20,000 nucleotides of DNA. Source: an uncultured virus (IMG/VR IMGVR_UViG_3300017963_000256). Its lineage: Duplodnaviria > Heunggongvirae > Uroviricota > Caudoviricetes. Below the pieces are notes generated by a model, which made no database searches, was not told the origin of the DNA, and saw nothing but the letters and a program-made list of their open reading frames with translations. Position 1 is the stretch's first letter, and each line of letters starts with the position of its first letter. Positions 2,841 to 19,999 of this stretch are shown piece by piece. The position numbers were made by a program, and so were the translations under genes. Location: IMG/VR virus record IMGVR_UViG_3300017963_000256. One strand, given 5' to 3'.

Positions 2841-2858
2841 CTGTTTACTCCTTTTTGG

Positions 2859-4155: not shown

Positions 4156-4460
4156 TTATATAATTTCAGTTCTTTGAAAAAAGGATCCCACTCTTTCCGT
4201 GGCTTAAACACCATAGCCACTTCCTGATTCCCCAAAGTGGATTCCGTAATAACCCTATGATCCTTTAAAAAAGATGCTCTCAAATACTCTGATTTATCGA
4301 CTTTGCATACAACCTTCTTGAACGACACTTCCATCCATTCCTGAACGTCCCTGTCATCAAACCATTCAAGATATGCAATCAGAGAGGCATGCGCTACTGC
4401 AACAATCGCATTCCCCACCGGAATATCATCTTTAACCAGAATATACATTTTCATCTTCAT
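4152..4460 (-). CDS. Peptidyl-tRNA hydrolase, PTH2 family
   Basis: KMYILVKDDIPVGNAIVAVAHASL...W...FKKVVCKV...ITE matches the PTH2 pattern (initial strand, AHA helix, W, KKVV strand); length about 100 aa fits the family. Confidence 0.75.
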   Translation of the reverse strand: MKMKMYILVKDDIPVGNAIVAVAHASLIAYLEWFDDRDVQEWMEVSFKKVVCKVDKSEYLRASFLKDHRVITESTLGNQEVAMVFKPRKEWDPFFKELKLYK

Positions 4461-5092
4461 CCCTTAATAATTTTATTTAATGATTCTTTCGTGTTCTTAA
4501 TCAAATCCGGTGACACGTTAGTGTAATGGTCCTTGCTGTACCAGTCCGTATCCACCAGAGGCAAAAATACCTCTGCCAATTTAACGGGGTTTTTCTGAAG
4601 TTTGTCGTCATCAGGATTGCTGAAATTATAATGATAATCATTGTCGCCATGATGAAAACGAACGAATTTCTTCAAAACATCCGCATCGAATTTGCCGTGA
4701 TTTTCAGGAATTTCTTCCCCATACAATCCGCCGCCAACACCCGTTACCATGGATTCCATAAAAGAATGGAAAAACATGGAAGCAAATCTTTCATAAATGC
4801 TTTCCTCTTTTTCCTCCACCTTTTCACGCGGAACTTCATGAATCCTGTCCGCTTCTTCCGCTTTCTTCGTGGAAACTTTCAGCAGTTCACGGTAACGTTT
4901 CTTCTCTTTGACAGGCGGATCATCCGAAGAGAATTCATCATTGAAATGTTCAACGCACATGAAAATACTACCAACACGAACCATGTATCTGTGAACCGAA
5001 TCACAAATGACACAACTCGCATTAGGAACAACATGAACACTTTTTCTTTCAATGTTCGCCAGTACGTCAATCCATTTCGAAAGTTCGCTCAT
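4457..5092 (-). CDS. Hypothetical protein with N-terminal CxxC/CxxH zinc-finger-like motif
   Basis: Start MSELSKW at 5092 after GGAGGAG; contains CVIC...CVEH. Confidence 0.75.
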   Translation of the reverse strand: MSELSKWIDVLANIERKSVHVVPNASCVICDSVHRYMVRVGSIFMCVEHFNDEFSSDDPPVKEKKRYRELLKVSTKKAEEADRIHEVPREKVEEKEESIYERFASMFFHSFMESMVTGVGGGLYGEEIPENHGKFDADVLKKFVRFHHGDNDYHYNFSNPDDDKLQKNPVKLAEVFLPLVDTDWYSKDHYTNVSPDLIKNTKESLNKIIKG

Positions 5093-5105
5093 TTCTCCTC
5101 CCAAA

Positions 5106-5429
5106 TCAGTTCATATAAGGATCAGCATCCTCTTCGCCAGTATCCATCTCATGTTCTTCGTATTCGCCAGATGCCATAGCTTTCAGCAGAGTGCAACATT
5201 CAAGACAGACAACAAAAGACACCTGTGAGTCGGGCAGCTTTAAGACAATTCTCCTGAACGAAAGAGGCTGAACAGCGGCTTGCAGATCCCCTTCCTGTTC
5301 TGGTCCATCCGGTTTCCTGATGATAATACTTTCCGAACCAACCTTACGTTTGCAAATTCTGCAATTAAACGACAGTTCACCTTCTTGCGCATCCTCTTTC
5401 GAAAAAGTCGTAAATTCCAATGTCCGCAT
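5106..5429 (-). CDS. Small zinc-ribbon-like protein
   Basis: Start MRTLEF after AAGGGG; CRIC...CLEC pairs; acidic tail. Confidence 0.7.
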   Translation of the reverse strand: MRTLEFTTFSKEDAQEGELSFNCRICKRKVGSESIIIRKPDGPEQEGDLQAAVQPLSFRRIVLKLPDSQVSFVVCLECCTLLKAMASGEYEEHEMDTGEEDADPYMN

Positions 5430-5439
5430 CACATTCCCC

Positions 5440-5946
5440 TTATCCAGTAAGAGTTTCAGAGTCATATGTCACTGTTCGCTTGAGAAGACGAAACCCAGTA
5501 ACATCTATTTTAGTACGCCTGCCAATGCATCCTTCGGGCTGTTCCTTTTCAAAAGCACGCGCCCGCTTCATCATAAATTCAAGCTGTTCATCCGTAGGAC
5601 GATCATAAAAACTGATACCTACAGACAAATAAGCAGGATATTTATCTTTTTTATCCGGACCTTCACCATCCCGATAATGTTTGCCCATCCCATCATTCCA
5701 CCAACCGGGAGTCGGTTCAATATGGACTATCGTATCATGCTCTGCGTCAGGATGACGATATGAATTGTTCAAAAGATCATCAAACCACTGAACAGGCTTC
5801 AGTTTCACACATTCGTCAGCGTATCCGAGGGTCCATTCATGGAAGTATTCTTCTTTTCTTCCTGTACACCATGCGCAAAGTTCACGCTCGAAATAACCCG
5901 CATACTGCTCTGTGTCAATGACGAAAATGTACGTTGAATAACCCAT
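5440..5946 (-). CDS. Hypothetical protein
   Basis: Start MGYSTYIFVIDT at 5946, after AAGGGA and the upstream stop; 168 aa. Confidence 0.8.
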   Translation of the reverse strand: MGYSTYIFVIDTEQYAGYFERELCAWCTGRKEEYFHEWTLGYADECVKLKPVQWFDDLLNNSYRHPDAEHDTIVHIEPTPGWWNDGMGKHYRDGEGPDKKDKYPAYLSVGISFYDRPTDEQLEFMMKRARAFEKEQPEGCIGRRTKIDVTGFRLLKRTVTYDSETLTG

Positions 5947-5954
5947 GTTTTCCC

Positions 5955-6083
5955 TTACGATGCCATTGCGCTGATTGCCGCAAAAATCCATTTCACAACA
6001 CTCATCACCATGATAATAATGAAAAGCCAAACCGGAATGTGTCCGGATAATGTCAATGCAAATGCTAAAAGACTGACTCTCAT
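5955..6083 (-). CDS. 42-aa hydrophobic membrane peptide, below the ORF-track cutoff
   Basis: AGGAGG SD, then ATG at 6083: MRVSLLAFALTLSGHIPVWLFIIIMVMSVVKWIFAAISAMAS*. It is the first gene after the promoter motif. Confidence 0.75.
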   Translation of the reverse strand: MRVSLLAFALTLSGHIPVWLFIIIMVMSVVKWIFAAISAMAS

Positions 6084-6096
6084 AATTTCCTCCTGC

Positions 6097-6124
6097 CTAC
6101 TATACGTAAAAAATCCCGAATCTC
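6097..6124 (-). promoter_or_regulatory. Putative promoter GAGATTCG-N9-ACGTATAGTAG
   Basis: Second copy of the 725-752 motif with identical spacing, at the head of the gene run spanning 6083 to about 930. Confidence 0.65.
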
Positions 6125-6155
6125 ATAGAAATTCTCAAAATATTCTTAAATCATG

Positions 6156-6425
6156 CTACCGCCGTCGCTTACTCCGTTTCGCCTTGAATTCACCTTTCCG
6201 ACCACGGATCCATTTCAGATACTTCGACATATCTGGCTGTTTCAAAAGATCTTCAAACGACATCAAAGCCAGTTCTTTCTCCGTATATAAGGCATGAACC
6301 TGACGATGACACGTCTTACACGCAGGAACAGTATCATCATTCTTCCCACCACGGGATTTTGGCTTTATGTGATGCTTACTAGTGGACTTAACATCACGAA
6401 AACAAATTCCACATTGCTTTTCCAT
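6156..6425 (-). CDS. Small HNH endonuclease-family protein
   Basis: CGIC...HHIKPKSRGG...CKTCHRQVH is a zinc-binding HNH signature. Confidence 0.85.
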   Translation of the reverse strand: MEKQCGICFRDVKSTSKHHIKPKSRGGKNDDTVPACKTCHRQVHALYTEKELALMSFEDLLKQPDMSKYLKWIRGRKGEFKAKRSKRRR

Positions 6426-6431
6426 AGCTTC

Positions 6432-6463
6432 CTATTATACGTAAAAGTGAGGAAATTAGACAA
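6432..6463 (-). promoter_or_regulatory. Sigma70-like promoter TTGTCT-N18-TATAAT sharing the TTACGTATAATAG core
   Basis: -35 box at 6463-6458, -10 box at 6439-6434, 8 nt before the HNH ATG. Confidence 0.6.
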
Positions 6464-6496
6464 AAAAAAATCCCCACGATCCGAAAATCGCGGGGA
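6462..6496 (-). terminator. Rho-independent terminator
   Basis: Minus strand reads TCCCCGCGATT-TTCG-GATCGTGGGGA followed by a run of 9 T. Confidence 0.85.
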
Positions 6497-6521
6497 ATTT
6501 TAATATTTTCTACGTCTTAAA

Positions 6522-6713
6522 TCAGACGTTGCTTTTTTCAATAATGGTCGTGTCGTCCAAATCACTACCCAAATCTTCTCCAAAAACACGACGGTTGTAA
6601 CCGCGCATCGCTACCGAAATCGCGATCTCATCAATGGCGTCCGCTTCCTTGCGGCAATCCATCTGTTCCAGTTTTACAGCCAAATTAGCCATTTCCCTCA
6701 GTACTTCTTTCAT
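6522..6713 (-). CDS. Small helical hypothetical protein, monocistronic between two terminators
   Basis: Start MKEVLREMANLAVKLEQMDCRKEADAIDEIA at 6713 with GGAGG upstream; 63 aa. Confidence 0.7.
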   Translation of the reverse strand: MKEVLREMANLAVKLEQMDCRKEADAIDEIAISVAMRGYNRRVFGEDLGSDLDDTTIIEKSNV

Positions 6714-6828
6714 CCTACTCAAGCCTCCAATTAAAACATCCACTAAAGTAAACGAACACGTCATCTGCATATTCCGATTTATAACGATTAAACCTCGTTC
6801 AGTGTTCATTAATTTTTTTTACTCCATC

Positions 6829-6856
6829 AAAAAACCCCGCATACAACGCAGGGTTT
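6829..6856 (-). terminator. Rho-independent terminator ending the gene run that carries the NWY tag
   Basis: Minus strand reads AAACCCTGCGT-TGT-ATGCGGGGTTT followed by TTT. Confidence 0.8.
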
Positions 6857-6887
6857 ATGCCTTCTCTGATATATGGTATACATTACA

Positions 6888-7571
6888 TCAGGTGATTCCT
6901 GCATGAAATTTGTCAAATAACCTCTCATAGATGTTGTTCCAATCCGCATCAGGATACTTCTCCTTAGACTTCTCGCACAGGAACTTCGCCGCCTCCTCAC
7001 CTTGTTTTTCGTCCAAATTATAGTCGGGGTAAAGCTTTTTCATTTCCCGCATAATATTTTCATCAAGAGCAATATCATCATAAATCTTCTGTGGTAACTC
7101 AAAATCAGGCTTCTCAGACTTCTCAATGTCTTCTACCGTTAGATTGGGTTCCCAATTCTCCAACATTCTTTCTATAATGTCCTGAGTTACACCATGAGTA
7201 TTCCGCTTTGCCAACTCCTCTGCATCAAATCTCCACGGCGTCTCCGCTTCACGAATCTCGATCTCATAACCATTCTTCTTCGCCATATCCACATATTCTT
7301 TGGCTTCCCATGCCCGAACATTCGTATTGTCAATCACAACGGGAGAAATTCCTTTTTCTACTGCGTCCTGTGCCCTCTGACGAGTCCAATCATGGGCTTC
7401 CTGCATCTTGTCAGGAATAAACTCGTATTCCCCATCCTGTTCCCAAAAATCATCCGTACTCAATATAACGCCGCCTTCTCCAAGTTCTTTTGCCAACGTG
7501 GACTTCCCTGATCCAGAAACACCACGCATAATAATCATCTTTTTCTCTTGGGCGACTTTATACCAATTCAT
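6888..7571 (-). CDS. P-loop kinase (AAA_33 / N4BP2-like polynucleotide kinase family) with MNWYKVA tag
   Basis: Walker A motif MRGVSGSGKST, plus LSTDD, VVIDNTN and LAKRNTHGV, typical of N4BP2-like kinases; extra helical C-terminal region. Confidence 0.85.
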   Translation of the reverse strand: MNWYKVAQEKKMIIMRGVSGSGKSTLAKELGEGGVILSTDDFWEQDGEYEFIPDKMQEAHDWTRQRAQDAVEKGISPVVIDNTNVRAWEAKEYVDMAKKNGYEIEIREAETPWRFDAEELAKRNTHGVTQDIIERMLENWEPNLTVEDIEKSEKPDFELPQKIYDDIALDENIMREMKKLYPDYNLDEKQGEEAAKFLCEKSKEKYPDADWNNIYERLFDKFHAGIT

Positions 7572-8290
7572 TAACCTACTCCTATCTTAACGTATCCATT
7601 CTCAGTAGCCCAATCACAAACCGACTGTAAGCGATCCAAATATGATAAAGCTTGATCGTCCTGCACCAGCATTACATGAACATTGCCGCCAGACATTTCT
7701 TTTCTTTCCCTATTCTCTTCCTGTAATTTGTTTTTCAAAGTACTTCTGGCAAGATCTATCTTTTGAGAAATCTGCCATGTGTCAAACGAATGTTGATCAA
7801 GATTTAACCCTAATAAATCCTCAAATAAAAAACGCATATTGGCATTACTTAAATGCATCTTAGGAGGATTGTTTATTTCCTGAGAAGGCAATTCAATAAT
7901 AGGAAATCTTACCACATTAGAATCAAAAATACCACTTTTCTCATAAATAAGATCACCAAATTTAACACCTTTTTCACCTAATATATACTTCAACATAGAT
8001 ACAATCTTCGGTAGTTTGCTCTCTGGCAAACCTACTATATAAAAATTCATCACTCCGCTAGGTTTATCCCAACTGTAACCATCAGGGGCCAAAACTTCCA
8101 TAGGACGATTTTGCTTCCAATGTTCCATCTCTTCATTTGTCAAAATCTTACTAAGCAAAGTAAAAAAATCATGACTAAGAGCAAAACAAAGATGTAAAAT
8201 GTTATCCACTTCCTGATCATATGTATGATCTACTACATACACGTCCATTGAGGCAAATTTGCAAGTTTTTGCGACTTTGTACCAATTCAT
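7571..8290 (-). CDS. Hypothetical protein with MNWYKVA tag
   Basis: 239 aa; ATGA overlap upstream and TAATG overlap downstream. Confidence 0.85.
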   Translation of the reverse strand: MNWYKVAKTCKFASMDVYVVDHTYDQEVDNILHLCFALSHDFFTLLSKILTNEEMEHWKQNRPMEVLAPDGYSWDKPSGVMNFYIVGLPESKLPKIVSMLKYILGEKGVKFGDLIYEKSGIFDSNVVRFPIIELPSQEINNPPKMHLSNANMRFLFEDLLGLNLDQHSFDTWQISQKIDLARSTLKNKLQEENRERKEMSGGNVHVMLVQDDQALSYLDRLQSVCDWATENGYVKIGVG

Positions 8291-8814
8291 TTTTGGCTTT
8301 CATTCAAATGCGGAAATGGAACGGAAGGAACATCCTTCCCCAAAAACTTACATAACTTTTTCCAACCATCTCCTTCTTGTACATCAAAATAAAGCACATC
8401 GCGGGAAGAAAAATAAGCCATAATCCCCTGATAATGCCTTATAAATGTTGACCTCCAAGCTTTCTTGTCATAATGAAACATCCCATGAATACGAAAACGA
8501 TTCTCTAAAATCTGAGCCTTAGTATCTATCCGCATTCCCTTGTTTTTTCGATCAGAAGATGCAGACCAGTCATCTATATCCCTGATCGTTACTATAAACT
8601 TTGCATTCGGATAAAGATAATCCAGAAACTTGTAACGACTTGCCACATATAAATCATTACAAAAATCATGTTTTTCAATCTCTTCAAGAGATCGAGGAGC
8701 ATGAATGGCACTGTAACCAAGAATCTGCATCGCTCTGCATAAACTTGTTGTGCCCGTCCTTCCGATACCAATATCAAAGATCTTACAATCAGGACGTTGT
8801 CCTAGTTCCGTCAC
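8287..8814 (-). CDS. Sulfotransferase-like protein (Sulfotransfer_4 type)
   Basis: IFDIGIGRTGTTSLCRAMQILGY, YPNAKFIVTIRD..W..S and GDGWKKLCKFLG..VP..PFPHLN are family hallmarks. Confidence 0.85.
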   Translation of the reverse strand: MTELGQRPDCKIFDIGIGRTGTTSLCRAMQILGYSAIHAPRSLEEIEKHDFCNDLYVASRYKFLDYLYPNAKFIVTIRDIDDWSASSDRKNKGMRIDTKAQILENRFRIHGMFHYDKKAWRSTFIRHYQGIMAYFSSRDVLYFDVQEGDGWKKLCKFLGKDVPSVPFPHLNESQK

Positions 8815-9436: not shown

Positions 9437-9862
9437 TTAAACAAAGGCACCCGGAAACATTCCTTTAATATCTTGATACATTTTGGTATCGGATAAATCT
9501 ATTTCTTCACTTTCTACCATTGCCTTAAAGATGTTCTTAAAAGCTTGTTTCAATTCTGCTTCACTCACTGCTGGACCGCCCCCGTCGATACTTTCAATAA
9601 TGGGCGTGGCTTCCGCAATCGCTTCAGAAAGTTTCTGATCATCTATAAGATCTGTCCCACGAATTGTCCCAATATAATTGTATATCAATTCATAAGCATT
9701 TAAAATATGCTCCATGCTATCGGGACCCTCCATAGTATCAAGAGACTTCATCAATTTATCTTGCTCCTCCGGACTCAGTCCATATCCTTCACCAGCCCCC
9801 GGAACATTTTCCTTAGGGAAGTAAGGAAGAGTTTCTTCTGCTGCTTTTTTGTACCAATTCAT
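9437..9862 (-). CDS. Acidic hypothetical protein with MNWYKKA tag
   Basis: 141 aa; SD AAAGGAG; ATGA overlap. Confidence 0.85.
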   Translation of the reverse strand: MNWYKKAAEETLPYFPKENVPGAGEGYGLSPEEQDKLMKSLDTMEGPDSMEHILNAYELIYNYIGTIRGTDLIDDQKLSEAIAEATPIIESIDGGGPAVSEAELKQAFKNIFKAMVESEEIDLSDTKMYQDIKGMFPGAFV

Positions 9863-10266
9863 GCTGGAACTCCTTTTTCTATTCTCGCCGGTCCTTCTGG
9901 AACTTCCGGTTCTGGTTCAGGTTGTGGTTCAGGTTCGGGCTGTAAAGCCTTCTGACGAGCCTGTTCGTACATGCTCCCCAATAACGGGGATAATTGATCC
10001 TGATAGAAATCGTTCAATTCCATCTCAAACGTATTCAAATTGTTTGCGATAGCATTTACATTCGTAACGTCATTCAACTCTTCAGACCCTATCTTCTCTG
10101 CTCCTGATTTAATCTCTTTGGCTGTACTCGAAACACGTTTACTCGTCATTTCGAATACTTCCAACGATTTCTCAAGTTTATTGGTTGCCTCCTCAAGAGA
10201 AGAAACTCTCTCATCTGGAGCATCACGAAACGCTTCTTTTTTTATCGCAAATCTATACCAGTTCAT
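9859..10266 (-). CDS. Coiled-coil protein with MNWYRFA tag and Pro-Glu-rich C-terminus
   Basis: Start moved to ATG 10266 (GAGG SD, ATGA overlap with the psd stop); tail QPEPEPQPEPEPEVPEGP. Confidence 0.8.
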   Translation of the reverse strand: MNWYRFAIKKEAFRDAPDERVSSLEEATNKLEKSLEVFEMTSKRVSSTAKEIKSGAEKIGSEELNDVTNVNAIANNLNTFEMELNDFYQDQLSPLLGSMYEQARQKALQPEPEPQPEPEPEVPEGPARIEKGVPA

Positions 10267-11339
10267 GGCGTCACCTCTCCAACACACATGCCACAGTTGT
10301 AATGAACGCCCGGTGCCGCCGTGATCGTCACATTGCTCTCTTCCTGAAACAACATGATAATGTCACTGCCGCCGAACATGAAATAACCGAATTCTTCGCC
10401 CTTATTCAAATAGCTTCCAACAACTGCCGTCATGTTGACAGAAGATACTTGAGCCATTCCAATAGGCAGAACAGCCACAAGACCAATAGGGCTATCAAAT
10501 ACGATGAGTCCTCTCGTTTGGGTGAATTCATATCCCGCTCCATCAGGTGCAGTAAACTCACCATCCTTAATCTGCACGTCCAAATACACATTCTGCTGAA
10601 TGGCACGGCACTCCATTACCGTACCGCGTACCGGTGCCCTAAAACGATGGTAGTCATTAGGACCCAGAAACGCATGCATAAATGTGCCACCCACAAACTT
10701 CTCACGATATGGACTTCCTTCCAGCAAATCCAAAATCTTATACTTATGAGTCAGTTTAATGGTTACTTCATTCTCCAAATCAATAGGAAATTTCCTCATG
10801 AATGTACTATCGGCGGGGGAAGTAATAATATTGTCTTCAAACATACCAGCAACGGGACGTAATCCGGGTTTAATTTCGCGGGCAAAAAATTGATTAAACG
10901 TCAACCAACCAGATGGATTATGCATGTAATCATCTACTCTAAAATCCGGATCCCGTAAAAAAGTATCAATCCCAGATGCCGATGCGGTCGTATTTAAATA
11001 ACTTCCCCACTGATTTGCAAAATCACGCATCCATGTATTAAAATCTTTATGCTTCTGTAATTCCCTGCCAGAAGGTTGATCCAATAACCAATAAAACTTA
11101 CACAACATATAAAGAACTTCTTTAGGAACATCCTCACGAGGAGTCCAGTGAACCATCCGTTCAAGATAAACAAAATATCCTTTTTCGCCTTCTAATCCTT
11201 CCGGAAAATCTTTGGCACCTTTTAATCCAGCCTTCATCGCTTTGACTTTGGCTTCCGTAATGGAATCCACCAGCATCTGCACCCAACCGTCTTGTTCATG
11301 TACTTGTAATAATGCCTGCAGTTCTTGAACAATATCCAT
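10263..11339 (-). CDS. psd: Phosphatidylserine decarboxylase proenzyme
   Basis: TFNQFFAR, ITSPADS, FLGPNDYHRFRAPV and KGEEFGYFMFGGSDII, including the GG/S self-cleavage site that generates the pyruvoyl cofactor. Confidence 0.9.
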   Translation of the reverse strand: MDIVQELQALLQVHEQDGWVQMLVDSITEAKVKAMKAGLKGAKDFPEGLEGEKGYFVYLERMVHWTPREDVPKEVLYMLCKFYWLLDQPSGRELQKHKDFNTWMRDFANQWGSYLNTTASASGIDTFLRDPDFRVDDYMHNPSGWLTFNQFFAREIKPGLRPVAGMFEDNIITSPADSTFMRKFPIDLENEVTIKLTHKYKILDLLEGSPYREKFVGGTFMHAFLGPNDYHRFRAPVRGTVMECRAIQQNVYLDVQIKDGEFTAPDGAGYEFTQTRGLIVFDSPIGLVAVLPIGMAQVSSVNMTAVVGSYLNKGEEFGYFMFGGSDIIMLFQEESNVTITAAPGVHYNCGMCVGEVTP

Positions 11340-11341
11340 TC

Positions 11342-11782
11342 TTACTCTCCAAGTCGTTGTTTAAGCTGCTTTTTGAGGGTTGTTTTGCTGATATGAAAAG
11401 GATTGTCAGTTGATGCTTCTTTTTCTTCGTCCTCAGATTCATCTTCCTCAGACTCTTCTTCCGGTTCTTCGGCTTTAAAGTCCTCAGATTCATCGGACAT
11501 TTCTTCTACTTCTTTGCGACCTTCTTCAATCGCTTCTTTCTCTTCCGGATCCAATTCATCTAACAACTGTTGAAATTCGCCTTTATGTACCTGTTCTTCG
11601 CGGGCGATATCCAATAATACTTTTTTTACTTTTTCGTTGTCAGATCTTTCGGCAACCAGCGTATATAAATGGGTGGCCTCTTCTTCCGCAGCCAGCCCCT
11701 GCCGTAATGCCTGAATGAGTTCGACTTCGCTTAAAGGACCATCGTCGTCCATACCGGGAAAAGGATTAATGAATTGTGCCAT
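11342..11782 (-). CDS. Ferritin-like (rubrerythrin-type di-iron) protein with acidic linker and basic tail
   Basis: ELIQALRQGLAAEEEATHLY...DIAREEQVHKGEF contains E, Y and ExxH ligand motifs. Confidence 0.85.
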   Translation of the reverse strand: MAQFINPFPGMDDDGPLSEVELIQALRQGLAAEEEATHLYTLVAERSDNEKVKKVLLDIAREEQVHKGEFQQLLDELDPEEKEAIEEGRKEVEEMSDESEDFKAEEPEEESEEDESEDEEKEASTDNPFHISKTTLKKQLKQRLGE

Positions 11783-11791
11783 GATTTTTCC

Positions 11792-12307
11792 TCATTTTGT
11801 GTACCAATACTGAGTTTCGAGTTTATATGGATGATATTCCTCACCTTCAGTCATTACGGCATATGGAATATCGTTTATTTTGTCAACCAATCTCTTCAAA
11901 TTCGCCATATGATTCTCAATGCCTTTAGGAGATCCTTCAGCCTTTAACACTCTTTTATCCTCAAGTAACACAACACGAATCAATGCGCCTTGATCATAAA
12001 TAGCGGTCATAAACTTATCGCTCAGACTATCTTCAGTCATATCATAAACATGCCATCCGGCACCAGTTTCCTTCACTTCCTGCGCTACGCTTTCTCGAAG
12101 ATCCTCCAACGTATCCTTATGGCTTTCGAGCATCGCCACCAAATCAGATGGATAGTCATTAGGATTCTTCTCAATCTCTTCTTTCAAAGCCTCCAGATGA
12201 TTCCAATAATCCGTTACCAACAACTTGTTCGCAGGAGTTAACCAACCGGCACCCTTCTCCAGAAACTTCTCAAAGTCATCTTTACCGGCTTTTTTATACC
12301 AATTCAT
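11792..12307 (-). CDS. Hypothetical protein with MNWYKKA tag
   Basis: 171 aa; contains GWLTP...H; ATGA overlap. Confidence 0.85.
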   Translation of the reverse strand: MNWYKKAGKDDFEKFLEKGAGWLTPANKLLVTDYWNHLEALKEEIEKNPNDYPSDLVAMLESHKDTLEDLRESVAQEVKETGAGWHVYDMTEDSLSDKFMTAIYDQGALIRVVLLEDKRVLKAEGSPKGIENHMANLKRLVDKINDIPYAVMTEGEEYHPYKLETQYWYTK

Positions 12308-12585
12308 TCCAACCCAACCCTCGATTCGTCAGTTTCCAAAGATGCCAAGACAGGGACCTCATCAACAATACGAACAGGCCGAACCGAAAGGTGACCTTCA
12401 TATGGTCTTGTCGCCAGATGCGCCCAATCTTCCTCTTCAAAGATCTCCGCACCCGCCAAATCAGATAAAGTGGGTAAAGTTGCCGATTTATTCTTTTCGT
12501 AACCTTTTCCAAGATAGGCAGCGCCATCTTCAAACTCGACGACCCAACCATCTATTTCTGCTTCTGCTTTTTTGTACCAGTTCAT
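12304..12585 (-). CDS. Hypothetical protein with MNWYKKA tag
   Basis: Start moved to ATG 12585, 1 nt after the upstream TGA; 93 aa. Confidence 0.8.
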   Translation of the reverse strand: MNWYKKAEAEIDGWVVEFEDGAAYLGKGYEKNKSATLPTLSDLAGAEIFEEEDWAHLATRPYEGHLSVRPVRIVDEVPVLASLETDESRVGLE

Positions 12586-12586
12586 A

Positions 12587-13135
12587 TCAATTCTTAGCCT
12601 CATAACCAAAAGACATCTCAATATTGATCTTATCGCCAGCATCTTCTGTCTTCACAGAGACCGATTCAAAGTCTAGTTCATATTCAATATATTCGTGAGC
12701 ATCCGGTGTTGTCCCGTTCATTTCCAAAATACGACTTTTTCGTGAATCACCTAAAAGATCCATATCTTCAGCAACATCAATACGAAGCCACTCCATGATC
12801 CCTTCTCTATCCTGTTGTGGAATAAGGTCAGCGGCTGTCATCTGCATCAAAGCCGGATGGTCAAACGGAATCCATGACTTCACCACAACCTCACCCTCGC
12901 ATACTCCATAATTATAAGAAGGAAGAGGAAAGCCACCAGCGCCAGAAGGATAGTCCCCCGGATCATCCCATGTGTCCATGTAACAGTCTACTGTATTCTT
13001 TTCGACAACAGCATTCTGGACAATGGTATCAGCGATTTCCCTAAAAAACTTATCATCACCCATAGCCGCGTTCTTGCGAAGAGCTTTCCGCAGGTCGCTC
13101 GAACTCATTTTGAATTCTGAATTATCGGTATTCAT
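12587..13135 (-). CDS. Acidic hypothetical protein
   Basis: 182 aa; GGAGG SD; contains WDDPGDYPSGAGGFPLPSY. Confidence 0.8.
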   Translation of the reverse strand: MNTDNSEFKMSSSDLRKALRKNAAMGDDKFFREIADTIVQNAVVEKNTVDCYMDTWDDPGDYPSGAGGFPLPSYNYGVCEGEVVVKSWIPFDHPALMQMTAADLIPQQDREGIMEWLRIDVAEDMDLLGDSRKSRILEMNGTTPDAHEYIEYELDFESVSVKTEDAGDKINIEMSFGYEAKN

Positions 13136-13428
13136 TTTGGAAACCTCCCAGATTTTTTCTTTAATGACGAAATAGGAACTCGTCGCTCCAAATTCATATA
13201 TCCTTTAACCGGATTGTAACTTAAAATTAAACTTCCTTCCTCATGCATCGCTTCATCACCACATAAAGAAGGTTCCGCTTTTACTTCTCCAGTCTTCAAA
13301 TGTCTCCGCAATAAATATCTAATTACTTCTTCCTCACCCTTCTTCTCTAAAATGACAAAAGCCTTTGCCGCAGAAGGACCCTCCACGTGTGCCAAAGGCT
13401 GATACGCACTTTTTTGTTGCTGTGCCAT
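13132..13428 (-). CDS. Hypothetical protein, tandem paralogue of 13474-13779; the original start may be 13453 with a frameshifted NWY leader
   Basis: AYQPLAHVEGP...GEEEVIRYLL...GDE...ILSYNPVKGY...RVP aligns with the neighbouring protein. Confidence 0.8.
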   Translation of the reverse strand: MAQQQKSAYQPLAHVEGPSAAKAFVILEKKGEEEVIRYLLRRHLKTGEVKAEPSLCGDEAMHEEGSLILSYNPVKGYMNLERRVPISSLKKKSGRFPK

Positions 13429-13473: not shown

Positions 13474-13779
13474 TTAAACGACCTCTGCCGCAGGAACCCT
13501 CTCTGTCAGGCTTGCATATCCTTGTGCCGGATTGTAAGCCAAAATATAATTATCTCGTTCGTAGATGAATTCGTCCCCACTGAAAGGTGGCGAACTAAGA
13601 CTGCCCTCGTCACGATGTACATTCAACATGTAATCAATGACATCTTCCTCACCTTGATTGTCCATGATCTTTTTGACTTCTGCTATCGCCGGTCCATCGA
13701 CATAGGCAATCTGACGATAACCCATTGAAGCTGTTTTGTTTATGATCGTTGTTAATGATGCTTTTTTGTACCAATTCAT
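13474..13779 (-). CDS. Hypothetical protein with MNWYKKA tag, paralogue of 13132-13428
   Basis: GYRQIAYVDGP...GEEDVIDYML...GDE...ILAYNPAQGY...RVP; AAAGGA upstream. Confidence 0.85.
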   Translation of the reverse strand: MNWYKKASLTTIINKTASMGYRQIAYVDGPAIAEVKKIMDNQGEEDVIDYMLNVHRDEGSLSSPPFSGDEFIYERDNYILAYNPAQGYASLTERVPAAEVV

Positions 13780-13841: not shown

Positions 13842-16800
13842 TTATAATATTTTAAACAAAACAGCATATTTAGGGTCTTCATCCTCTTCCATTATCTGTC
13901 CAATAAAGTCTAAACCATACTTATCTAAGCGGTTAGATCTCGGAGAACCATCTGGATTCATCAATAATCTGTATGAATCTGACAACATTTCAGCCGCCAA
14001 AAACTCATATCCTTTTTCCCTAAGTTGTTTTAGGAAATCATTTATCATTAAACTTAAATTGCGGCGATATTGTTTTTGAACTGCCAAATTGGAAACATAC
14101 ATCACCTTTCCTTGCTGAATTTTCTTAAAAAATTCTTCTAAAAATTCTTCAAAATTCTCTGCATAAGCAGGATTCATAAACTCAATTTCATAGGGATCAA
14201 AATCCTCTAAATTATCCGTCTCTATAAAATCATAACCATAAAGATAACCTTGAAGTTCGTCATTATCCATGAGACCAGTCCCTGTGCTTCCGGGCTGAAT
14301 CATGTCATTATATAAATATGCTTCTGGATCCGCATGGTCATCCTCATAATGTTCAAAATTGATTCTATCCAATTCTTCCATTCTACGAGAATGCTCTCTG
14401 TTTCGTCTGACTGCTTCTGGAAGGTCAATCAAACTGACAGCATACTTTGCCATCTGATACCAATTCTTTGCCACTTTTACAACCTCCTTTGAATCCTGAA
14501 GATACAAATCTTGATACCCTTCTTCTAAAAAAGGATACTTGTCATCATTGTCCCAATCAGGAACTTTTTCACCTAATCTATCAACTCCAAGACTATCATA
14601 ACCCGTACCAATCAAAACACTGCGCCCAGTAGCCTCTTTATACTTTTGGGCAAATTTCTTATATGCTTGTTGAATCTTTTGTTTTGCTGTTTGATTTTTA
14701 CTCATCTTCTTACCCTTCCCCTCGAATGGTCTATCCTGAAAAACATCGGCAAAAATGTTCTTCTTACCACGCTCCCCTCCTTCAAGTTCATCTGATTTTC
14801 TTTTCAATACACTTGAAAATTCAACATTATCCAAAACCAAAGATTCCCCATCTTCTGTCAACCACATCCAACTCTGTGCCTGAAATTTACCGTCCTTATA
14901 AACCGTCAAAAAGCCAGATTTAGGATTCACATATCCTTCAATCATCGAACTTTCTGAAGCATCCTCAAACTTCTGACAACAACCAGAATATGCAAGTTCA
15001 CCTAACACAAGCCCTAAAGGATCTGTTTTATCAAGACTCGCAAACTCATACGCATCACCATCTACATCTACACTAATCTTAATTGGATCAATTTCACTCT
15101 TGCCAAAATTTTCATGATTTATAATGTTGCCAACTCCATCCAAAGCCTCATAAAAGTTTGCGTCTGAGTAAAAAACAATTTGTTCCATCCCCTTTATGGA
15201 GAAATCTTTTTGTTCTTCAGTGGTATATGTACTACGACCTTTTTCTATATCATCCAAAAATTTATTATAATCTGCGTACTTGTGTTTATCTAATTGAACA
15301 GAAAAACGATGCAAAGCTGTTGTGTTAATCGGAATCTTCACATTGTTTTTAATCTCATTACGCATTCTCTTAATAGCTGTCCAACGTTTCTGATTCTCTT
15401 CACGATTCTCACTCTTCGGATACTTTTTATCTATCTCTTCCATCCCTTCTTTTTCTAATTGGGAATATTGACTTTCAAGATATTGCGGAATAATAGAAGC
15501 ATAATATATGATCGGATTTTCACCACCAAGGTCTGTGCTTTTCGAAGAAGAAAGCAAATATGATCCTATATATTTAGAAACATTTTTATCTTGTAATGCT
15601 TCATCCATTTTTTTACCGAAAGTATTAAACTTTTGAAAAACCGTTAAAATTACATTAATATCTTTGGTAAGATTCAACTGATTTATCACTATATTGGAAA
15701 TCAAACGATCCAAGATAGGAGAGAAAGAAAGATTATGATCTTTCTTAAAAATTTCATAAAGCTTATTTAGAGATCCCATCAACTCTTTGTAATCATAATG
15801 TCTCTTTCCAGTGTATTCAGAAAGATCATTCGCTGCATTAAAACGCCTACCTATCTCGTTTCCATTGATTCTCTCCAAATTAGAAAAATCAATTTCCAAC
15901 TTATCTAAATCAACTTCTCCAGAAAGATAAAGTTCCCGAATGGTAGGAGCCAAACTGTCAACTAATGCAAAATCTTCTGCCAAAGTTTTCTTGGCTTCAA
16001 GAGAAAAATCATATTTTTTCTGAAGTCTTTTAAACGTTTTTTTTGCGTCATACTCATATGAATAATAAGCAGTCTGCTTGAGAGTGTTATACACCTTCTC
16101 TCTATGATTTTTATAAATGTGAGGGAAGAGACCATAAGTCCATAAAATACTAGCTCTAGGAATTATTGTGGATGGAAATTTCTTTAAGATAAGATCAACC
16201 ATATCCGGTTGCTTCGTGCTAACAGCCCTCTCCATAGATTCTTTAAGATCTCCTTCTGACTTTTTTAAAATCTCATTTACTTTTTCTAAATTCTTTTCTT
16301 TTATAGCCAATTCAAGAACAGCATTACTGTCATATTCGCTGAAACGATCTACACGATCCAGAAACAATTTTAAAAACTCCAAATCACCAGATTTAACGGC
16401 TGTTTCTACAGCATATCTGTTTATCTCTTTTTTATAAAACGGAAGCATAGCCCGCGCCAATTCAGGATTCCCCGATTTAGCCAAATGCTGCAGACCACTA
16501 TCTCCCAATTGAGGATTCTCTACATTCTTTGCATACTCCATGAAACCATCTAATCCGCTGTAATAAAAGATTGAATCAGGATTCAGCCTTTCTTTGCCAT
16601 ATGGAAACAATAACTTTGCAACTTCGAGATTACTTGTATTAGAAACAGTTCCCCAACACCGATCCTGTTTTGAATCAAGACCATGTTCAAGCAATGCTTT
16701 AACCATCTCAGGACTTCTAAGCAAAATCTCATCACATAAAACATGAGGATGTGTCCCTTTTGTGGCGTTCAAAACTCTTTTATATATTTCCGGTCCAAAG

Positions 16801-18044
16801 AAAGGAGCGTCCAACTGCGCCTCTGTATATGAACCAGTATATTGTTTTTCTTCTATAAGATCTAACACCATCTCTACAATTTCAGGCGATTTATCTAACC
16901 TTGATCGTGAGACTGCCAGATGCAAAATCTTAGGATTCAATGAGGAAAATCCATTCTGAATTAAAGCCTCCATAACCTCCGCTGCGCCTTTAGAGCGCCC
17001 CATCGCCAGACTCAATAAATTTCCGTCTTCTGTTTCTATTTTTTGACCAATCTTTCCAAAATAATTTACAAGACGAACACATACATCTGTGGAAGAACCC
17101 CAAAATGCTTTCTTCAACAAAGCATAAGGATTCGGAATAGTAATTCCATTCTGACCAAAATAATTCAATAAAACATCTACGATCTCTTCGTTTCGATTTT
17201 CAATAGCAAAATTGAGAGATCTGGCAGGTATGCCCTTATCGGTTGTAACACCACGCTCCAAAGCCTTATAAACCACTTCTGAATTGTTTGTTTTAACAGC
17301 CTCTATCAAAGTCTGAGGTTCTTCTTTTGGAACTACCTGCCTAAATAACTGAGCTATTTCCGTATGTCCTTCTATGATAGCCAATGCTATAGCGTCTGGA
17401 GTCGGTATCATACCATACGACAAAAGAAGCTTTACTAATTCGATATTATCTGTCATCAGGGCCATTTTCATCACATTTGGATTAACTGTAGCGCCCATGT
17501 CCAAAAGTAAACGAATGATATCTATCCTAACATTATCATCATTAATTACTCCAGTAAGATGTAGTTGTGCATCAGCTTTATATCCTGCGTCTTTAAGTTT
17601 CGAAACAATCTCATAACCTTTGCTATGTCTGGTAAGATCATCCCAACTAGATGCTCCCACTGGAGCGCCAATACTTATCGCATAATCCAAAAAACCTTTA
17701 TCAGATCTATAATTTCGAATCGCATCTGCCATTAAATATTGATTCGGTTTAACACCATTTTGAAGAAGAAAACTTACAATATCACGCTTACCTTTGCGAA
17801 CGGCACGTGTCAAAGCATTCGACAACTCTTGAACCGTTATTCTTGAAATCCCCTTTGGATGATCAAACAACATTTGGGCTATTTCAAATTGCCCTTCCTC
17901 TAACGCCGGGTCGAAATAATAATACTCAACTTGCTTCAGATTTGATATGAACTCACGGGCAGCATTCAAATCACCCTGAGACACAATCTGCTCAAAGTCA
18001 GTAGGCGGATTCTCCGGCATTTGTGCCGTTACATACCAATTCAT
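13842..18044 (-). CDS. 1400-aa multidomain protein: MNWYVTA tag, ankyrin-like repeats, helical region, 'GCCQ' domain, internal NWY motif, GNAT-like C-terminal domain
   Basis: Ankyrin-like units ALTRAVRKGKRDIVSFLLQNG, AIALAIIEGHTEIAQLF and SLNFAIENRNEEIVDVLL. The C-terminal MYVSNLAVQKQYRR resembles GNAT motif A. Confidence 0.85.
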   Translation of the reverse strand: MNWYVTAQMPENPPTDFEQIVSQGDLNAAREFISNLKQVEYYYFDPALEEGQFEIAQMLFDHPKGISRITVQELSNALTRAVRKGKRDIVSFLLQNGVKPNQYLMADAIRNYRSDKGFLDYAISIGAPVGASSWDDLTRHSKGYEIVSKLKDAGYKADAQLHLTGVINDDNVRIDIIRLLLDMGATVNPNVMKMALMTDNIELVKLLLSYGMIPTPDAIALAIIEGHTEIAQLFRQVVPKEEPQTLIEAVKTNNSEVVYKALERGVTTDKGIPARSLNFAIENRNEEIVDVLLNYFGQNGITIPNPYALLKKAFWGSSTDVCVRLVNYFGKIGQKIETEDGNLLSLAMGRSKGAAEVMEALIQNGFSSLNPKILHLAVSRSRLDKSPEIVEMVLDLIEEKQYTGSYTEAQLDAPFFGPEIYKRVLNATKGTHPHVLCDEILLRSPEMVKALLEHGLDSKQDRCWGTVSNTSNLEVAKLLFPYGKERLNPDSIFYYSGLDGFMEYAKNVENPQLGDSGLQHLAKSGNPELARAMLPFYKKEINRYAVETAVKSGDLEFLKLFLDRVDRFSEYDSNAVLELAIKEKNLEKVNEILKKSEGDLKESMERAVSTKQPDMVDLILKKFPSTIIPRASILWTYGLFPHIYKNHREKVYNTLKQTAYYSYEYDAKKTFKRLQKKYDFSLEAKKTLAEDFALVDSLAPTIRELYLSGEVDLDKLEIDFSNLERINGNEIGRRFNAANDLSEYTGKRHYDYKELMGSLNKLYEIFKKDHNLSFSPILDRLISNIVINQLNLTKDINVILTVFQKFNTFGKKMDEALQDKNVSKYIGSYLLSSSKSTDLGGENPIIYYASIIPQYLESQYSQLEKEGMEEIDKKYPKSENREENQKRWTAIKRMRNEIKNNVKIPINTTALHRFSVQLDKHKYADYNKFLDDIEKGRSTYTTEEQKDFSIKGMEQIVFYSDANFYEALDGVGNIINHENFGKSEIDPIKISVDVDGDAYEFASLDKTDPLGLVLGELAYSGCCQKFEDASESSMIEGYVNPKSGFLTVYKDGKFQAQSWMWLTEDGESLVLDNVEFSSVLKRKSDELEGGERGKKNIFADVFQDRPFEGKGKKMSKNQTAKQKIQQAYKKFAQKYKEATGRSVLIGTGYDSLGVDRLGEKVPDWDNDDKYPFLEEGYQDLYLQDSKEVVKVAKNWYQMAKYAVSLIDLPEAVRRNREHSRRMEELDRINFEHYEDDHADPEAYLYNDMIQPGSTGTGLMDNDELQGYLYGYDFIETDNLEDFDPYEIEFMNPAYAENFEEFLEEFFKKIQQGKVMYVSNLAVQKQYRRNLSLMINDFLKQLREKGYEFLAAEMLSDSYRLLMNPDGSPRSNRLDKYGLDFIGQIMEEDEDPKYAVLFKIL
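14427..14466. repeat. 40-bp exact direct repeat, copy 1, encoding NWYQMAKYAVSLI
   Basis: AATCAAACTGACAGCATACTTTGCCATCTGATACCAATTC is identical to 18062-18101; the flanking bases differ on both sides. Confidence 0.95.
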
Positions 18045-19999
18045 GTTTTACATCCTTTGGAAATCAAACTGACAGCATACTTTGCCATCTGATACCAATT
18101 CGCAACTCTGACAACCTTCGTCGCATCTGTATAAGGATATCCTTCCTCTGGATCCTGATATTCTTCATATTCCTCGTCATCTTCATTGTCATAGTCATCA
18201 CAAATCTCATTCTCAGGAAGAATTGGATAACTATTATAAAAATTCCATTTCTTAACTTCTTCGCCAATCGTCTTGACCCCTAAATCATCATAACCAGTTC
18301 CAATAAAAACATTCAAACCAGTTTTCTCTTTATATATTTGGGCAAACTTCTTGTAAGCCTGTTGAATCGAAACCTTGGCAGTGTTTGGTTTGACTTCCCT
18401 CTTATTATCTTCTGGTTTGTCTTGAAAAATATCTGAAAATAAATTACCTCTTAAATAAGGACTCTCATCTTCAAACATAGGTGAAAATTCAACATTGTCC
18501 AAAACCAATGTCTTATTATCTTCTGTCATCCAAATCCAACTCTGGGCAACAAAATTCCCATCCAAATAAACAGTCAAAAATCCAGATTTTGGATTCACAA
18601 ACCCTTCTATCATCGAATCTTCAGATTCATCATCAAATTTCTGACAACACCCAGAAAATGACTGTTCTCCCAACACCAACCCCAACGGATCCTTCTTATC
18701 AAGGATCTTAAATGTATATGTTTTCCCATCTTGTTCTACGTTAGTCTCTCCCGGCGCGATCTCTCCAACGCCAAAATTCTCATGTTTAATGATTCCTTTA
18801 TAAATCTTATTCGCCTTTTCGTAATATTCAAGATCAACTGTATTATCTAAAAGATAATTCATCCCTTTGTTAAAAAATTCAACTTGCTCATTGTCATCGA
18901 ATTTAAATTCAGCAATGTCTTCAAGATTAAGTTCTGATGTACTAATAATATCTTCCATGTTCTTTTCATGTATTTTGTAATTCTCATCAGTTCTCTTTTT
19001 GGTATATAACATCAAAGCATTCTTGGTAACTGGAATCTTGACGTTATTTTTGATTTCATTCCGTAACCTCTTAATCGCCTTCCACCGCTGTACGTTATCT
19101 TTCTTCTCTTCGCGCAAAGGAAACTTTTCATCAATCTCTTTCATTCCTTCTTCTTGTAACTCATACTGTTTATCTTCAATATACATAGGAATATAGCTGG
19201 CAAAAAGAAAAAGATTGTTATGTTTTTCCACCATATTAGAATCTTTGGAATTAGAAAGAAGAAAATCTTTCACAATCTTTTTGAAATCTTTATCTTCCAA
19301 TGCTTTAATCAGGCTTTTGTGACTACTTTGAAAAGTACTCAAAATAGGAACAAGATCGCCACTCATCCTAGTAAGCTTGAACTGATTCATCAAAACACTC
19401 ATTACAATCTTGTCAACAGAAGCAGGAATATTTAAACTATGCTCCTTCTTGAATATCTTGTAAATGCGGTGTATGTTTTCATAGACCTCTTTAGAACTAT
19501 GATGAACCTTCCCAGTATACTCACCAAGATCCTCTGAAACTCTCACGATGTTGGACAACTCCCCAACTTCCTCTTCATTAAGCTCTTCAATAACAGGAAT
19601 CTCAAATTTCATCCTGTCCAAATCTATCTTGCCTTCCAAGTATAACCTTCTCAATGTTTGCGGAAAATTCAATGCCGTTATGGGATCCGTTTTTATGATT
19701 CTTTCCACAATAGGAGACATGTCAAATTGGGTTTCTATATCTTTCCCTACGCCCAACGCACGATTGCTTTCGGAGAATATCTTCATGAAATAATCAGGAT
19801 TTAGATTATAGATATGTCTTGAAAGTTTCCCTCTTTGAATAAGTCTGGAAGTATCGTCTGTAATAAACTTAGGATCATTCAAACTAATAATATAATCCAA
19901 AAGAACAGTGTTTGAACCTGAGCCACCATATGATGCAAAACTATTTAAAACACTATCCAAAGCATTCGAAGGTAACTCAAACCCTATGCTCTCTAAAAA
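18041..19999 (-). CDS. Large paralogue of the 1400-aa protein (helical region + GCCQ domain); partial, start lies beyond the right edge
   Basis: The frame stays open upstream of 19960 (FLESIGFELPSNALDSVL). It shares RW.AIKR.RNEIKNNVKIP, DPLGLVLGE...SGCCQKF, SMIEG.VNPKSGFLTVY, AQSW.W and LVLDNVEFS with 13842-18044. Confidence 0.85.
   Translation of the reverse strand, partial: FLESIGFELPSNALDSVLNSFASYGGSGSNTVLLDYIISLNDPKFITDDTSRLIQRGKLSRHIYNLNPDYFMKIFSESNRALGVGKDIETQFDMSPIVERIIKTDPITALNFPQTLRRLYLEGKIDLDRMKFEIPVIEELNEEEVGELSNIVRVSEDLGEYTGKVHHSSKEVYENIHRIYKIFKKEHSLNIPASVDKIVMSVLMNQFKLTRMSGDLVPILSTFQSSHKSLIKALEDKDFKKIVKDFLLSNSKDSNMVEKHNNLFLFASYIPMYIEDKQYELQEEGMKEIDEKFPLREEKKDNVQRWKAIKRLRNEIKNNVKIPVTKNALMLYTKKRTDENYKIHEKNMEDIISTSELNLEDIAEFKFDDNEQVEFFNKGMNYLLDNTVDLEYYEKANKIYKGIIKHENFGVGEIAPGETNVEQDGKTYTFKILDKKDPLGLVLGEQSFSGCCQKFDDESEDSMIEGFVNPKSGFLTVYLDGNFVAQSWIWMTEDNKTLVLDNVEFSPMFEDESPYLRGNLFSDIFQDKPEDNKREVKPNTAKVSIQQAYKKFAQIYKEKTGLNVFIGTGYDDLGVKTIGEEVKKWNFYNSYPILPENEICDDYDNEDDEEYEEYQDPEEGYPYTDATKVVRVANWYQMAKYAVSLISKGCKT
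18062..18101. repeat. 40-bp exact direct repeat, copy 2
   Basis: Identical to 14427-14466. Confidence 0.95.

Follow-up and report, generated by a model that had tools for sequence, protein, structure and literature searches.

A short NWY peptide at the joint of two modules in a polyvalent-type viral protein: nested gene, cleavage site or portable tag?

The 20,000-nucleotide (nt) stretch of the IMG/VR record IMGVR_UViG_3300017963_000256, hereafter called the window, carries on its minus strand an open reading frame (ORF) of 1400 amino acids (aa). Near the end of this ORF a strong Shine-Dalgarno (SD) sequence and an in-frame GTG directly precede a short peptide with the motif NWY. This raises the question of how the last 210 residues are connected to the rest of the protein, and whether they are made from a nested gene, released at a cleavage site or fused at a joint of another kind. 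The reading favoured here, with a probability of about 0.7, is that two partner modules meet at this site, in a polyvalent-type protein whose uncultured source is probably a huge-phage-like element. The NWY peptide would be a portable tag, acting at the protein level at module ends, with a docking or junction role.

According to this reading, the last 210 residues would be a complete GNAT-fold unit, which in most relatives is a free-standing gene of about 200 aa and which here appears to be fused behind GCCQ, a domain without Pfam family that recurs as its partner. The peptide ([NS]-W-[YF]-x-x-A...) would be a short portable tag that heads eight proteins of the window as well as free GNATs, ends GCCQ modules and separates the modules of giant proteins. 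Since both partners carry the tag at their meeting termini, fusion and fission would occur exactly at the tag, and after a fusion the tag would stand directly ahead of the GNAT fold, in a flexible linker. The tag would work as a docking or junction peptide that is read by a partner or by another tag, and it would not belong to either fold. The strong SD and the GTG may in addition yield some free GNAT, which could for example serve a GNAT-less GCCQ paralogue encoded directly upstream.

The joint and its two modules

The window has a GC content of 39.6%, and its minus-strand genes are densely packed with overlapping stops and starts (Table 1). A 74,489-bp contig on record encodes the same 1400-aa protein, and a contig of 99 kb comes from the same element. 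In this protein, matches to Pfam families were confined to the ankyrin region. At the joint the minus-strand DNA reads ...TTCAAAGGAGGTTGTAAAAGTGGCAAAGAATTGGTATCAGATGGCAAAGTAT... and the protein KEVVKVAKNWYQMAKYAVSLI, in which the N of NWY is residue 1194 and follows a K; NWY begins three codons past the GTG. The initial annotation had described a full SD (AAAGGAGGT), a 7-nt spacer and an in-frame GTG at this place, and every detail of this description holds. From the GTG, 630 nt give the predicted 210 codons to the stop. The motif also stands at the GCCQ/GNAT-like junction, as had been supposed, with the GCCQ module reaching to aa 1190 and the GNAT fold starting at about aa 1201. A 437-nt contig of run X3, whose study code differs from that of X1 and X2, spans 14164-14600 with zero differences from the window. 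This makes it unlikely that the joint arose as an artefact of a single assembly. Further upstream in the ORF, a single contig of X1 contains a weak joint from 15805 to 16290 (side 22) that omits 484 nt; this could be a variant of the ankyrin/GCCQ boundary or an assembly effect.

For the 210-aa stretch AlphaFold2 (AF2), run with 50 homologues, gave a predicted local distance difference test score (pLDDT) of 94.3 and a predicted template modelling score (pTM) of 0.89. Residues 1-10 (VAKNWYQMAK) were modelled as coil with a mean pLDDT of 55, and the fold began at about residues 11-14 (about YAVSLID). Foldseek detected 459 PDB chains at E<=1e-3; the top matches were all GNAT acetyltransferases, with E-values of 1e-7 and weaker. 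A second AF2 model of 461 aa (aa 940-1400) reached a mean pLDDT of 78 and a pTM of 0.55. In this model the GNAT domain was confident and the GCCQ core moderate, with a pLDDT of 81-94 at model residues 40-140. Model residues 238-262, NWY included, had a pLDDT below 50, and structural matches began at 260-264. The idea that the motif lies in an inter-domain linker was thereby supported: in both models it is not buried and belongs to a low-confidence segment directly before the GNAT fold.

With VIA, Z-scores up to 14.6 were obtained over model residues 260-461, and 213 chains had a Z of at least 8. The best match was 4pv6 (Z 14.6, root-mean-square deviation (rmsd) 2.7 over 140 residues). The module resembles the N-terminal acetyltransferases Ard1/Naa10, RimI, Naa30 and Naa60 (4pv6, 5isv, 4r3k, 4kvm, 7l1k; Z 14.6-13.4, rmsd 2.1-2.7, 135-147 residues), but shares only 9-15% sequence identity with them. 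The top rows are 1-2 Z units from many other GNATs and statistically tied with these, so that no subfamily can be named. According to the models, the last 210 aa are a complete GNAT-fold module and a predicted enzyme.

Free relatives of this module were searched exhaustively with HMMER in 1.84 billion representatives (E<=1e-3). The 210-aa stretch matched 88 proteins, 55 of them with at most 260 aa and 23 with at least 500 aa. A word-indexed protein search returned only two matches of near length to the GNAT part and three to the GCCQ region; among shorter proteins it gave no match. When the GTG position is projected onto 57 short homologues, it falls not more than 12 residues from the protein's own Met in 46 of them; the seven that lie beyond the range from -12 to +25 are fragmentary or differ in their ends. 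Stand-alone homologues with an NWY-type start, proposed as a check in the initial annotation, do exist: P0090 starts with MSNWYKNY, P0089 with MSSWYNSY and P0006 with MNWFKIAQ. On the DNA of P0006 (locus L038) a stop codon lies five codons upstream of the Met. The proposal that a formerly separate tagged gene was fused at this site thus stood with regard to the free short homologues, some of which are tag-initial, but the tag is equally the C-terminal end of the upstream GCCQ module. As judged from the compared sequences, the interpretation of the C-terminal part as a fused free gene is well supported. The metagenome scan with the GNAT part used the eight closest sequences as query.

The GCCQ module has no family in Pfam (E up to 1), PHROG or the PDB sequences. 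Its nearest Atlas clusters are unnamed, and a PcfJ row with 0.83 falls below lead level. In a fold search with the two-domain model the listed matches were taken up by GNATs. The idea that GCCQ is itself a second GNAT in tandem found no support in hhalign of GCCQ against the GNAT profile, which gave a probability of 0.13. With a local jackhmmer search the GCCQ core was detected in 14 of the collected proteins and several loci, and it is present in 13 of the 88 GNAT matches, mostly in front of the GNAT.

The pair of GCCQ and GNAT was found in different arrangements. The closest full-length relative, P0002, has the same architecture; it is filed by NCBI under a metagenome-assembled genome (MAG) of Candidatus Sifarchaeia, an Asgard archaeon. 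In P0037, 14 DUF4116 repeats take the place of the ankyrin repeats before the same pair, and P0003 is a fragment of the fused form in which two tandem tags are kept. The order is reversed in P0006, where the GNAT precedes GCCQ and the protein ends with ...NWYKIAST at a true stop, the next gene being convergent. GCCQ and GNAT are encoded in separate ORFs in L039, L043/L044 and L047, and by adjacent genes in L042. In the split pair of L042 the GCCQ ORF ends with ...IFDYIYKLAIKFQHLYAEAVS before its stop, and the next gene opens with MYDAIYKLAVEFQ... followed by the GNAT; the local version of the tag flanks the gene boundary on both sides.

GCCQ modules that end in the tag and have no GNAT behind it are those of the upstream paralogue in the window, P0091, P0006 and P0011 (at 3531). 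P0091, with 51% identity in the GCCQ region, starts with MSWYTSA and ends with ...VYKVASWYRRAKYML and about 30 further aa, without a GNAT. The upstream paralogue is 43% identical to aa 672-1206 over 574 columns; it has kept the tag and lacks the GNAT, so the window holds two GCCQ modules and one GNAT. Within this sequence set GCCQ usually ends in the tag and recurs with this GNAT, fused or neighbouring. That the pair is found fused, split and reshuffled argues that GCCQ and GNAT work together. A complex prediction of GCCQ (A4 residues 40-250) with the tag plus GNAT (A2) gave no verdict for or against an interaction, with scores of 0.00 and 0.00.

Table 1 Positions of the joint, the modules and the tagged genes in the window
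Feature	Position	Strand	Remarks
1400-aa multi-module (polyvalent-type) ORF	13842..18044	minus	from ORF list and translation; MNWY tag, ankyrin repeats, GCCQ module, internal NWY tag, predicted GNAT-fold module
N-terminal tag MNWYVTA of the 1400-aa ORF	18024..18044	minus	reads MNWYVTAQ; start ATG and the stop of the upstream paralogue overlap (ATGA)
Ankyrin-repeat region, about aa 47-624	16173..17906	minus	Pfam Ank_2 (E 1.8e-23), also Ank_3, Ank_4, DUF3447
GCCQ module, aa 672-1190	14475..16031	minus	duplicated in the upstream ORF; without Pfam family
GCCQ conserved core, about aa 986-1190	14475-15089	minus	local jackhmmer
SD-like AAAGGAGGT	14482..14490	minus	within the ORF, codons K-E-V; duplex -12.3 kcal/mol
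In-frame GTG (Val1191), candidate internal start	14472..14474	minus	7 nt past the SD; matches N-termini of free homologues
Internal tag NWYQMAKYAVSLI, aa 1194-1206	14427..14465	minus	AF2: NWYQMAK of low confidence, YAVSLID opens the GNAT fold
GNAT-fold module, about aa 1201-1400	13845..14444	minus	AF2, Foldseek, VIA
Candidate nested ORF, 210 aa and stop	13842..14474	minus	from sequence and translation
Upstream paralogue, at least 652 aa	18041..19999	minus	5' end beyond the window; GCCQ module ending ...VVRVANWYQMAKYAVSLISKGCKT and stop
Second copy of the 39-nt block coding for the NWYQMAKYAVSLI tag	18063..18101	minus	19 residues before the stop of the paralogue
101-aa protein	13474..13779	minus	starts MNWYKKA
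Untagged paralogue of the 101-aa protein	13132-13428	minus	starts MAQQQKSA
Small protein	12304..12585	minus	starts MNWYKKAEAE; start set at the ATG before NWY
171-aa protein	11792..12307	minus	starts MNWYKKAGKD
Tagged protein	9859..10266	minus	starts MNWYRFAIKK
141-aa protein	9437..9862	minus	starts MNWYKKAAEE
239-aa protein	7571..8290	minus	starts MNWYKVAKTC
227-aa P-loop kinase (AAA_33)	6888..7571	minus	starts MNWYKVAQEK; Pfam AAA_33 (E 1.8e-22)

The NWY peptide in the window and in relatives

A six-frame translation of the window contains ten NWY tripeptides. Each of the ten belongs to a real ORF of the minus strand and fits the pattern NWYxxA. In eight cases the start Met stands directly before NWY (starts at 18044, 13779, 12585, 12307, 10266, 9862, 8290 and 7571); the other two are the internal tag at the joint and the copy near the end of the upstream paralogue. 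From the residue composition 0.17 NWY would be expected. Residue shuffles (n = 2000) averaged 0.165 and never exceeded 2, and six-frame nucleotide shuffles (n = 200) averaged 0.99 and never exceeded 5. The frequency of the motif in the window is thus beyond chance. The N-terminal tags vary at synonymous sites (AAT/AAC, TAT/TAC), hence selection acts on the tag peptide. Furthermore, the tag peptides are conserved across backgrounds of 26-41% GC.

The 101-aa protein and its neighbour are paralogues (...YRQIAYVDGPAIAEVKK... against ...YQPLAHVEGPSAAKAF..., with the shared ending ...YNP.KGY..LERRVP). The former has an N-terminal extension of about 20 aa opening with MNWYKKA, and the two form a natural pair of a tagged and an untagged protein.

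Outside the window the tag was found in arrays and within giant proteins. The IMG/VR record G001 has nine tags of the type MNWY[KR][KR]A in 4 kb, and internal and near-C-terminal tags as well; one of its tagged proteins is 60% identical to the P-loop kinase of the window. G001 and G002, both with MNWYKKA arrays, are fragments of 58-67 kb with an estimated completeness of 14%, which implies very large phage genomes. P0011 (4226 aa) contains nine motifs of the type NWY[KR]x[AS]Q, eight internal and one near the C-terminus, and DWYKTAQ near its start. Its GNAT match starts exactly at the motif at 2229, and P0006 (1209 aa) corresponds over its full length to residues 2229-3530 of P0011 with 39% identity, as a block reaching from tag to tag. 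In L038 a 1809-aa ORF (2446-7875, minus strand) carries two internal NNWYK[TV]AQ tags; its residues 1511-1776 are 67% identical to residues 904-1166 of P0011. The contig of L038 (26% GC) also contains a prepilin-type gene and a fragment of an IS200/IS605-type transposase; the tag thus also occurs away from contigs that are obviously of phage origin.

Marine relatives have a further N-terminal peptide in common, M-[IL]-K-x-L-I-K-[IL]-A-N-x-L-D-x-x-G-L-x-x-E-A, with which genes in succession begin (L039, about 4910-5700). It was also seen at the N-termini of P0025, P0027 and P0039, and before the GNAT in fused forms. It looks like a device of the same kind with a different sequence.

These distributions bear on the simplest alternative, that nothing is special about the site. 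The SD and the GTG would then be accidental, and NWYQMAKYAVSLI would be a conserved helix ending GCCQ that is unrelated to the N-terminal MNWY peptides. Accidental strong SD strings do occur in the same ORF, the SD/start is not conserved, and the residues before NWY (YTDAxxxxxxA) are conserved together with the GCCQ module. However, this view leaves the ten of ten NWY with the full NWYxxA pattern against an expectation of 0.17 to coincidence, and likewise the free GNATs that open with the same motif, the repetition of the motif on both genes of the L042 pair and its position at the limits of module blocks. As far as the motif is concerned it is largely contradicted, and as a whole it is highly improbable.

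The internal tags could alternatively be sites of polyprotein maturation. A protease would cut at or beside each NWY. The precursors would be the 1400-aa protein and the giants with several tags, and the M-NWY genes would mimic mature products. The nine motifs of P0011 each follow a small or polar stretch behind a hydrophobic residue (LSSNN, FSSKE, MASGR, FAGKD and others), and internal tags occur also in ORFs of G001 and L038. In the models the motif lies in a flexible segment and would be accessible. Moreover, proteolytic processing has been proposed for polyvalent proteins of phages (PMC5512222). On the other hand, no protease was found among the window proteins scanned, a scan that covered part of the ORFs, and no scissile-like invariant residue was seen at a fixed distance from the tag. 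At least four proteins (those of the window paralogue, P0006, L032 and P0091) carry the tag 5-38 residues before a true stop, where cutting would free only a tiny peptide. A docking or junction peptide fits these positions better than a cleavage site does, and we consider maturation at the tags unlikely.

The identity of the two tag copies on the DNA points to a further possibility. The 39 nt at 14428-14466 and 18063-18101 are identical, against 43% identity of the flanking protein. Identical degenerate residues of the two paralogues share their codon in only 54.6% of the cases, and the chance of 11 in a row is about 0.001; no run of identical codons between them is longer than the 13 codons of the tag, and the next one has five. 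The pattern suggests that a crossover or conversion took place at the tag recently. Such an event also fits YAVSLI, the predicted first GNAT strand, which is kept in the GNAT-less paralogue. The tag might act mainly at the DNA level, as an in-frame patch of homology for the insertion, deletion or swap of modules, with the peptide as a by-product. Both copies have the same orientation and reading phase, a crossover between them would fuse the GCCQ of the paralogue to the GNAT in frame, and tag-to-tag blocks are common to different giant proteins. The synonymous differences among the eight N-terminal tags and the retention of the peptides at varying GC content argue against it, as both indicate selection on the protein. 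Furthermore, no contig contained the joint from 18101 to 14466 expected for a 3.6-kb in-frame deletion variant, although rare variants could escape contigs. A role mainly in recombination is quite unlikely. The 39-nt block also holds a weak hairpin (GATGGCA-AAGTA-TGCTGTC) flagged by the terminator scan in both copies; with four terminator-like hairpins against 2.3 expected, the number is not significant.

The candidate internal start and points against the proposed reading

If ribosomes start at the GTG at 14474 by means of the internal SD, the locus is a working nested gene, and both the 1400-aa protein and a free, tagged 210-aa GNAT are made. The SD/start is the strongest of the 1342 minus-strand ATG, GTG and TTG codons, with an anti-SD duplex of -12.3 kcal/mol, and it is in frame. 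Only 10 of these 1342 codons, and 0 of 711 on the plus strand, have a duplex of -9.5 or lower, while most accepted starts of the window lie between -5 and -11 kcal/mol. The site is within the limits of an SD/start criterion of a duplex of at most -8.5 and an in-frame AUG, GUG or UUG within 15 nt. The GTG stands three codons before NWY, where the free homologues have their Met. With two GCCQ modules and one GNAT in the window, a free GNAT could serve the paralogue. By analogy, the internal starts of ArcB-C and rpnE provide a precedent (bioRxiv 10.1101/520783).

However, a nearly equal SD/start (-12.2) is present at 14770, about 300 nt upstream and out of frame in the same ORF, and is accidental. 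In a purine-rich coding sequence with such a site, the SD alone is weak evidence. The SD is also simply the codons for K-E-V. At the joint of the other fused loci with available DNA no SD/start was found (0 of 9), all pairings being weaker than -5.3 kcal/mol. These nine include the near-duplicate pairs L047/L048 and L040/L045 and represent about seven distinct forms; the DNA of P0002 and P0091 is not among them. L037, the closest fused locus (41% identity), is among those without an SD/start. In the upstream paralogue the corresponding codons are GTT GCG, neither of which is a start codon. In the minimum-energy fold of the RNA the SD pairs with downstream sequence, a fold that is not significant (z -1.36). 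The promoter scan gave no promoter-like site close upstream of the internal start (8 sites against 16.3 expected). From the sequence, independent initiation at the GTG is plausible; a working nested gene with both products is possible, but we regard it as doubtful. It is compatible with the proposed joint of two tagged modules.

Several observations weigh against this proposed joint. The docking role is inferred only, and no partner or reader of the tag was identified. Within the GNAT part, the curated GNAT models of Pfam were not matched by the window protein above threshold. Acetyltransf_1 was touched by only 2 of 50 family members (best E 0.032), and in a comparison of the profile with PDB sequences GCN5 appeared at E 0.47. 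The canonical pyrophosphate-binding loop for acetyl-CoA reads Q/R-x-x-G-x-G/A after strand 4. This signature was not evident by eye in the family alignment, the window protein having YRRNLS. In the segment aligned to the loop, YVSNLAVQKQYRRNLSL, R is common in the family and the glycines are not conserved, again by eye. In the two-domain model the GCCQ part reaches no more than moderate confidence, and the structure comparisons revealed no fold for it. Besides, half of the tag, YAVSLI, is the predicted first GNAT strand and is yet kept in the paralogue without GNAT, which may instead reflect recent recombination or deletion.

The assignment to a phage is affected as well. There is no phage hallmark gene within the window, the GNAT part and the paralogue have no protein relatives in IMG/VR, and the paralogue was unmatched in GenBank phages (tblastn). 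The filing of P0002 under an archaeal MAG also speaks against a phage. A pattern coding for NWYQMAKYA was absent from the IMG/VR contigs searched, and five IMG/VR records with MNWYKKA arrays had no GCCQ or GNAT relative. The gene style is phage-like, with a dense single-strand array, overlapping starts, an HNH gene and PHROG matches for the kinase and one protein of unknown function. It is because of this style and of the tag arrays in IMG/VR that the element is tentatively assigned to the phages.

Neighbouring genes and comparison with known systems

Among the untagged genes of the window, a member of the phosphatidylserine decarboxylase family (10263-11339; PF02666, E 4.8e-41) directly follows a small rubrerythrin/ferritin-like protein with an acidic tail (11342-11782; PF02915, E 1e-8). 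Of the genes at 6156-6425 and 8287-8814, one is by eye like an HNH-type endonuclease (CxxC...HH...CxxCH) and the other like a sulfotransferase; the second of the pair has a GTG start overlapping the previous stop. At about 6083 on the minus strand, between listed ORFs, a strong SD (-10.3) precedes an ATG that opens MRVSLLAFALTLSGH..., which resembles a signal peptide.

The tag system around the site is of more interest than the question of the nested start. Tentatively, NWYxxA could be the address or junction label of a module system in huge phages. Its units, unrelated enzymes labelled at their ends, would be strung together, split and swapped and would have one reader in common, which might be a hub for docking, a receptor for packaging or a protease for maturation. 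The GCCQ domain is a candidate for the reader of the tag. In a bolder variant, the GNAT, similar to N-terminal acetyltransferases, would modify the shared Met-Asn-Trp-Tyr N-termini. If the label system is true, the internal SD and GTG would be a third way of freeing a module. The tag would then provide a practical rule for cutting giant, unannotatable proteins of huge phages into testable units, and it points to a shared machinery (reader, packaging receptor or protease). For its part, the site provides a clear natural example of a pair, GCCQ and GNAT, that occurs fused, split and reshuffled.

A comparable device is the capsid-targeting sequence of phage T4, an N-terminal peptide on internal proteins that is removed at a defined motif of the prohead protease. 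Like this sequence, the tag is a short peptide common to unrelated proteins, with eight N-terminal copies in the window and nine copies in 4 kb of G001. In contrast to the T4 peptide, which is only N-terminal, NWY tags are also internal and C-terminal. A protease, a capsid gene or a cleavage motif was not identified in the DNA examined. A literature search with the tag strings gave no relevant paper, and the matches to NWYK and NWYKIA among those listed were, by their titles, from botany and software. The NWYxxA tag hence looks undescribed.

Internal in-frame starts are familiar from phages, for example lambda C/Nu3 and T7 gp4A/4B. At domain boundaries they are known from E. coli with ArcB/ArcB-C and RpnE/YpaA (Meydan et al., bioRxiv 10.1101/520783). 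In ArcB an internal GUG lies exactly at the boundary of the ArcB-C domain and leads to the free domain, and the internal product of rpnE is 98% identical to that of a separate gene (bioRxiv 10.1101/520783). The window site resembles that of ArcB-C: a C-terminal domain begins at a GUG preceded by an SD-like sequence, and the predicted product exists elsewhere as a separate gene. It stands at a domain boundary and also passes the duplex limit of -8.5 used in that preprint. In contrast, conservation of the ArcB site extends over 26 species, and ribosome profiling and western blot have proven it (bioRxiv 10.1101/520783), whereas none of the other fused loci compared shares the candidate start of the window.

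The closest published class are the polyvalent proteins, mobile-element proteins with 2-15 unrelated domains (Iyer, Burroughs, Anand, de Souza, Aravind 2017, PMC5512222). GNAT is among their domains, with 'solo' versions elsewhere, and a release of domains by proteolysis and packaging into the head were proposed (PMC5512222). In the same way, the ORF described here combines ankyrin, GCCQ and GNAT, which are free or otherwise combined in relatives, and these relatives carry repeat domains and weak ART/PARP-like matches below the Pfam cut-offs (in P0011 a PARP/Tpt1-like one at residues 277-344). Unlike in our proteins, a conserved short peptide at module boundaries is not mentioned for polyvalent proteins in the available part of PMC5512222, nor are linkers or ankyrin. 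The two GNAT families treated there have other contexts (an ART neighbour and elements of type IV secretion systems), a comparison made by context only. In general, the architecture fits the published class of polyvalent proteins, and in-frame starts at domain boundaries are already known.

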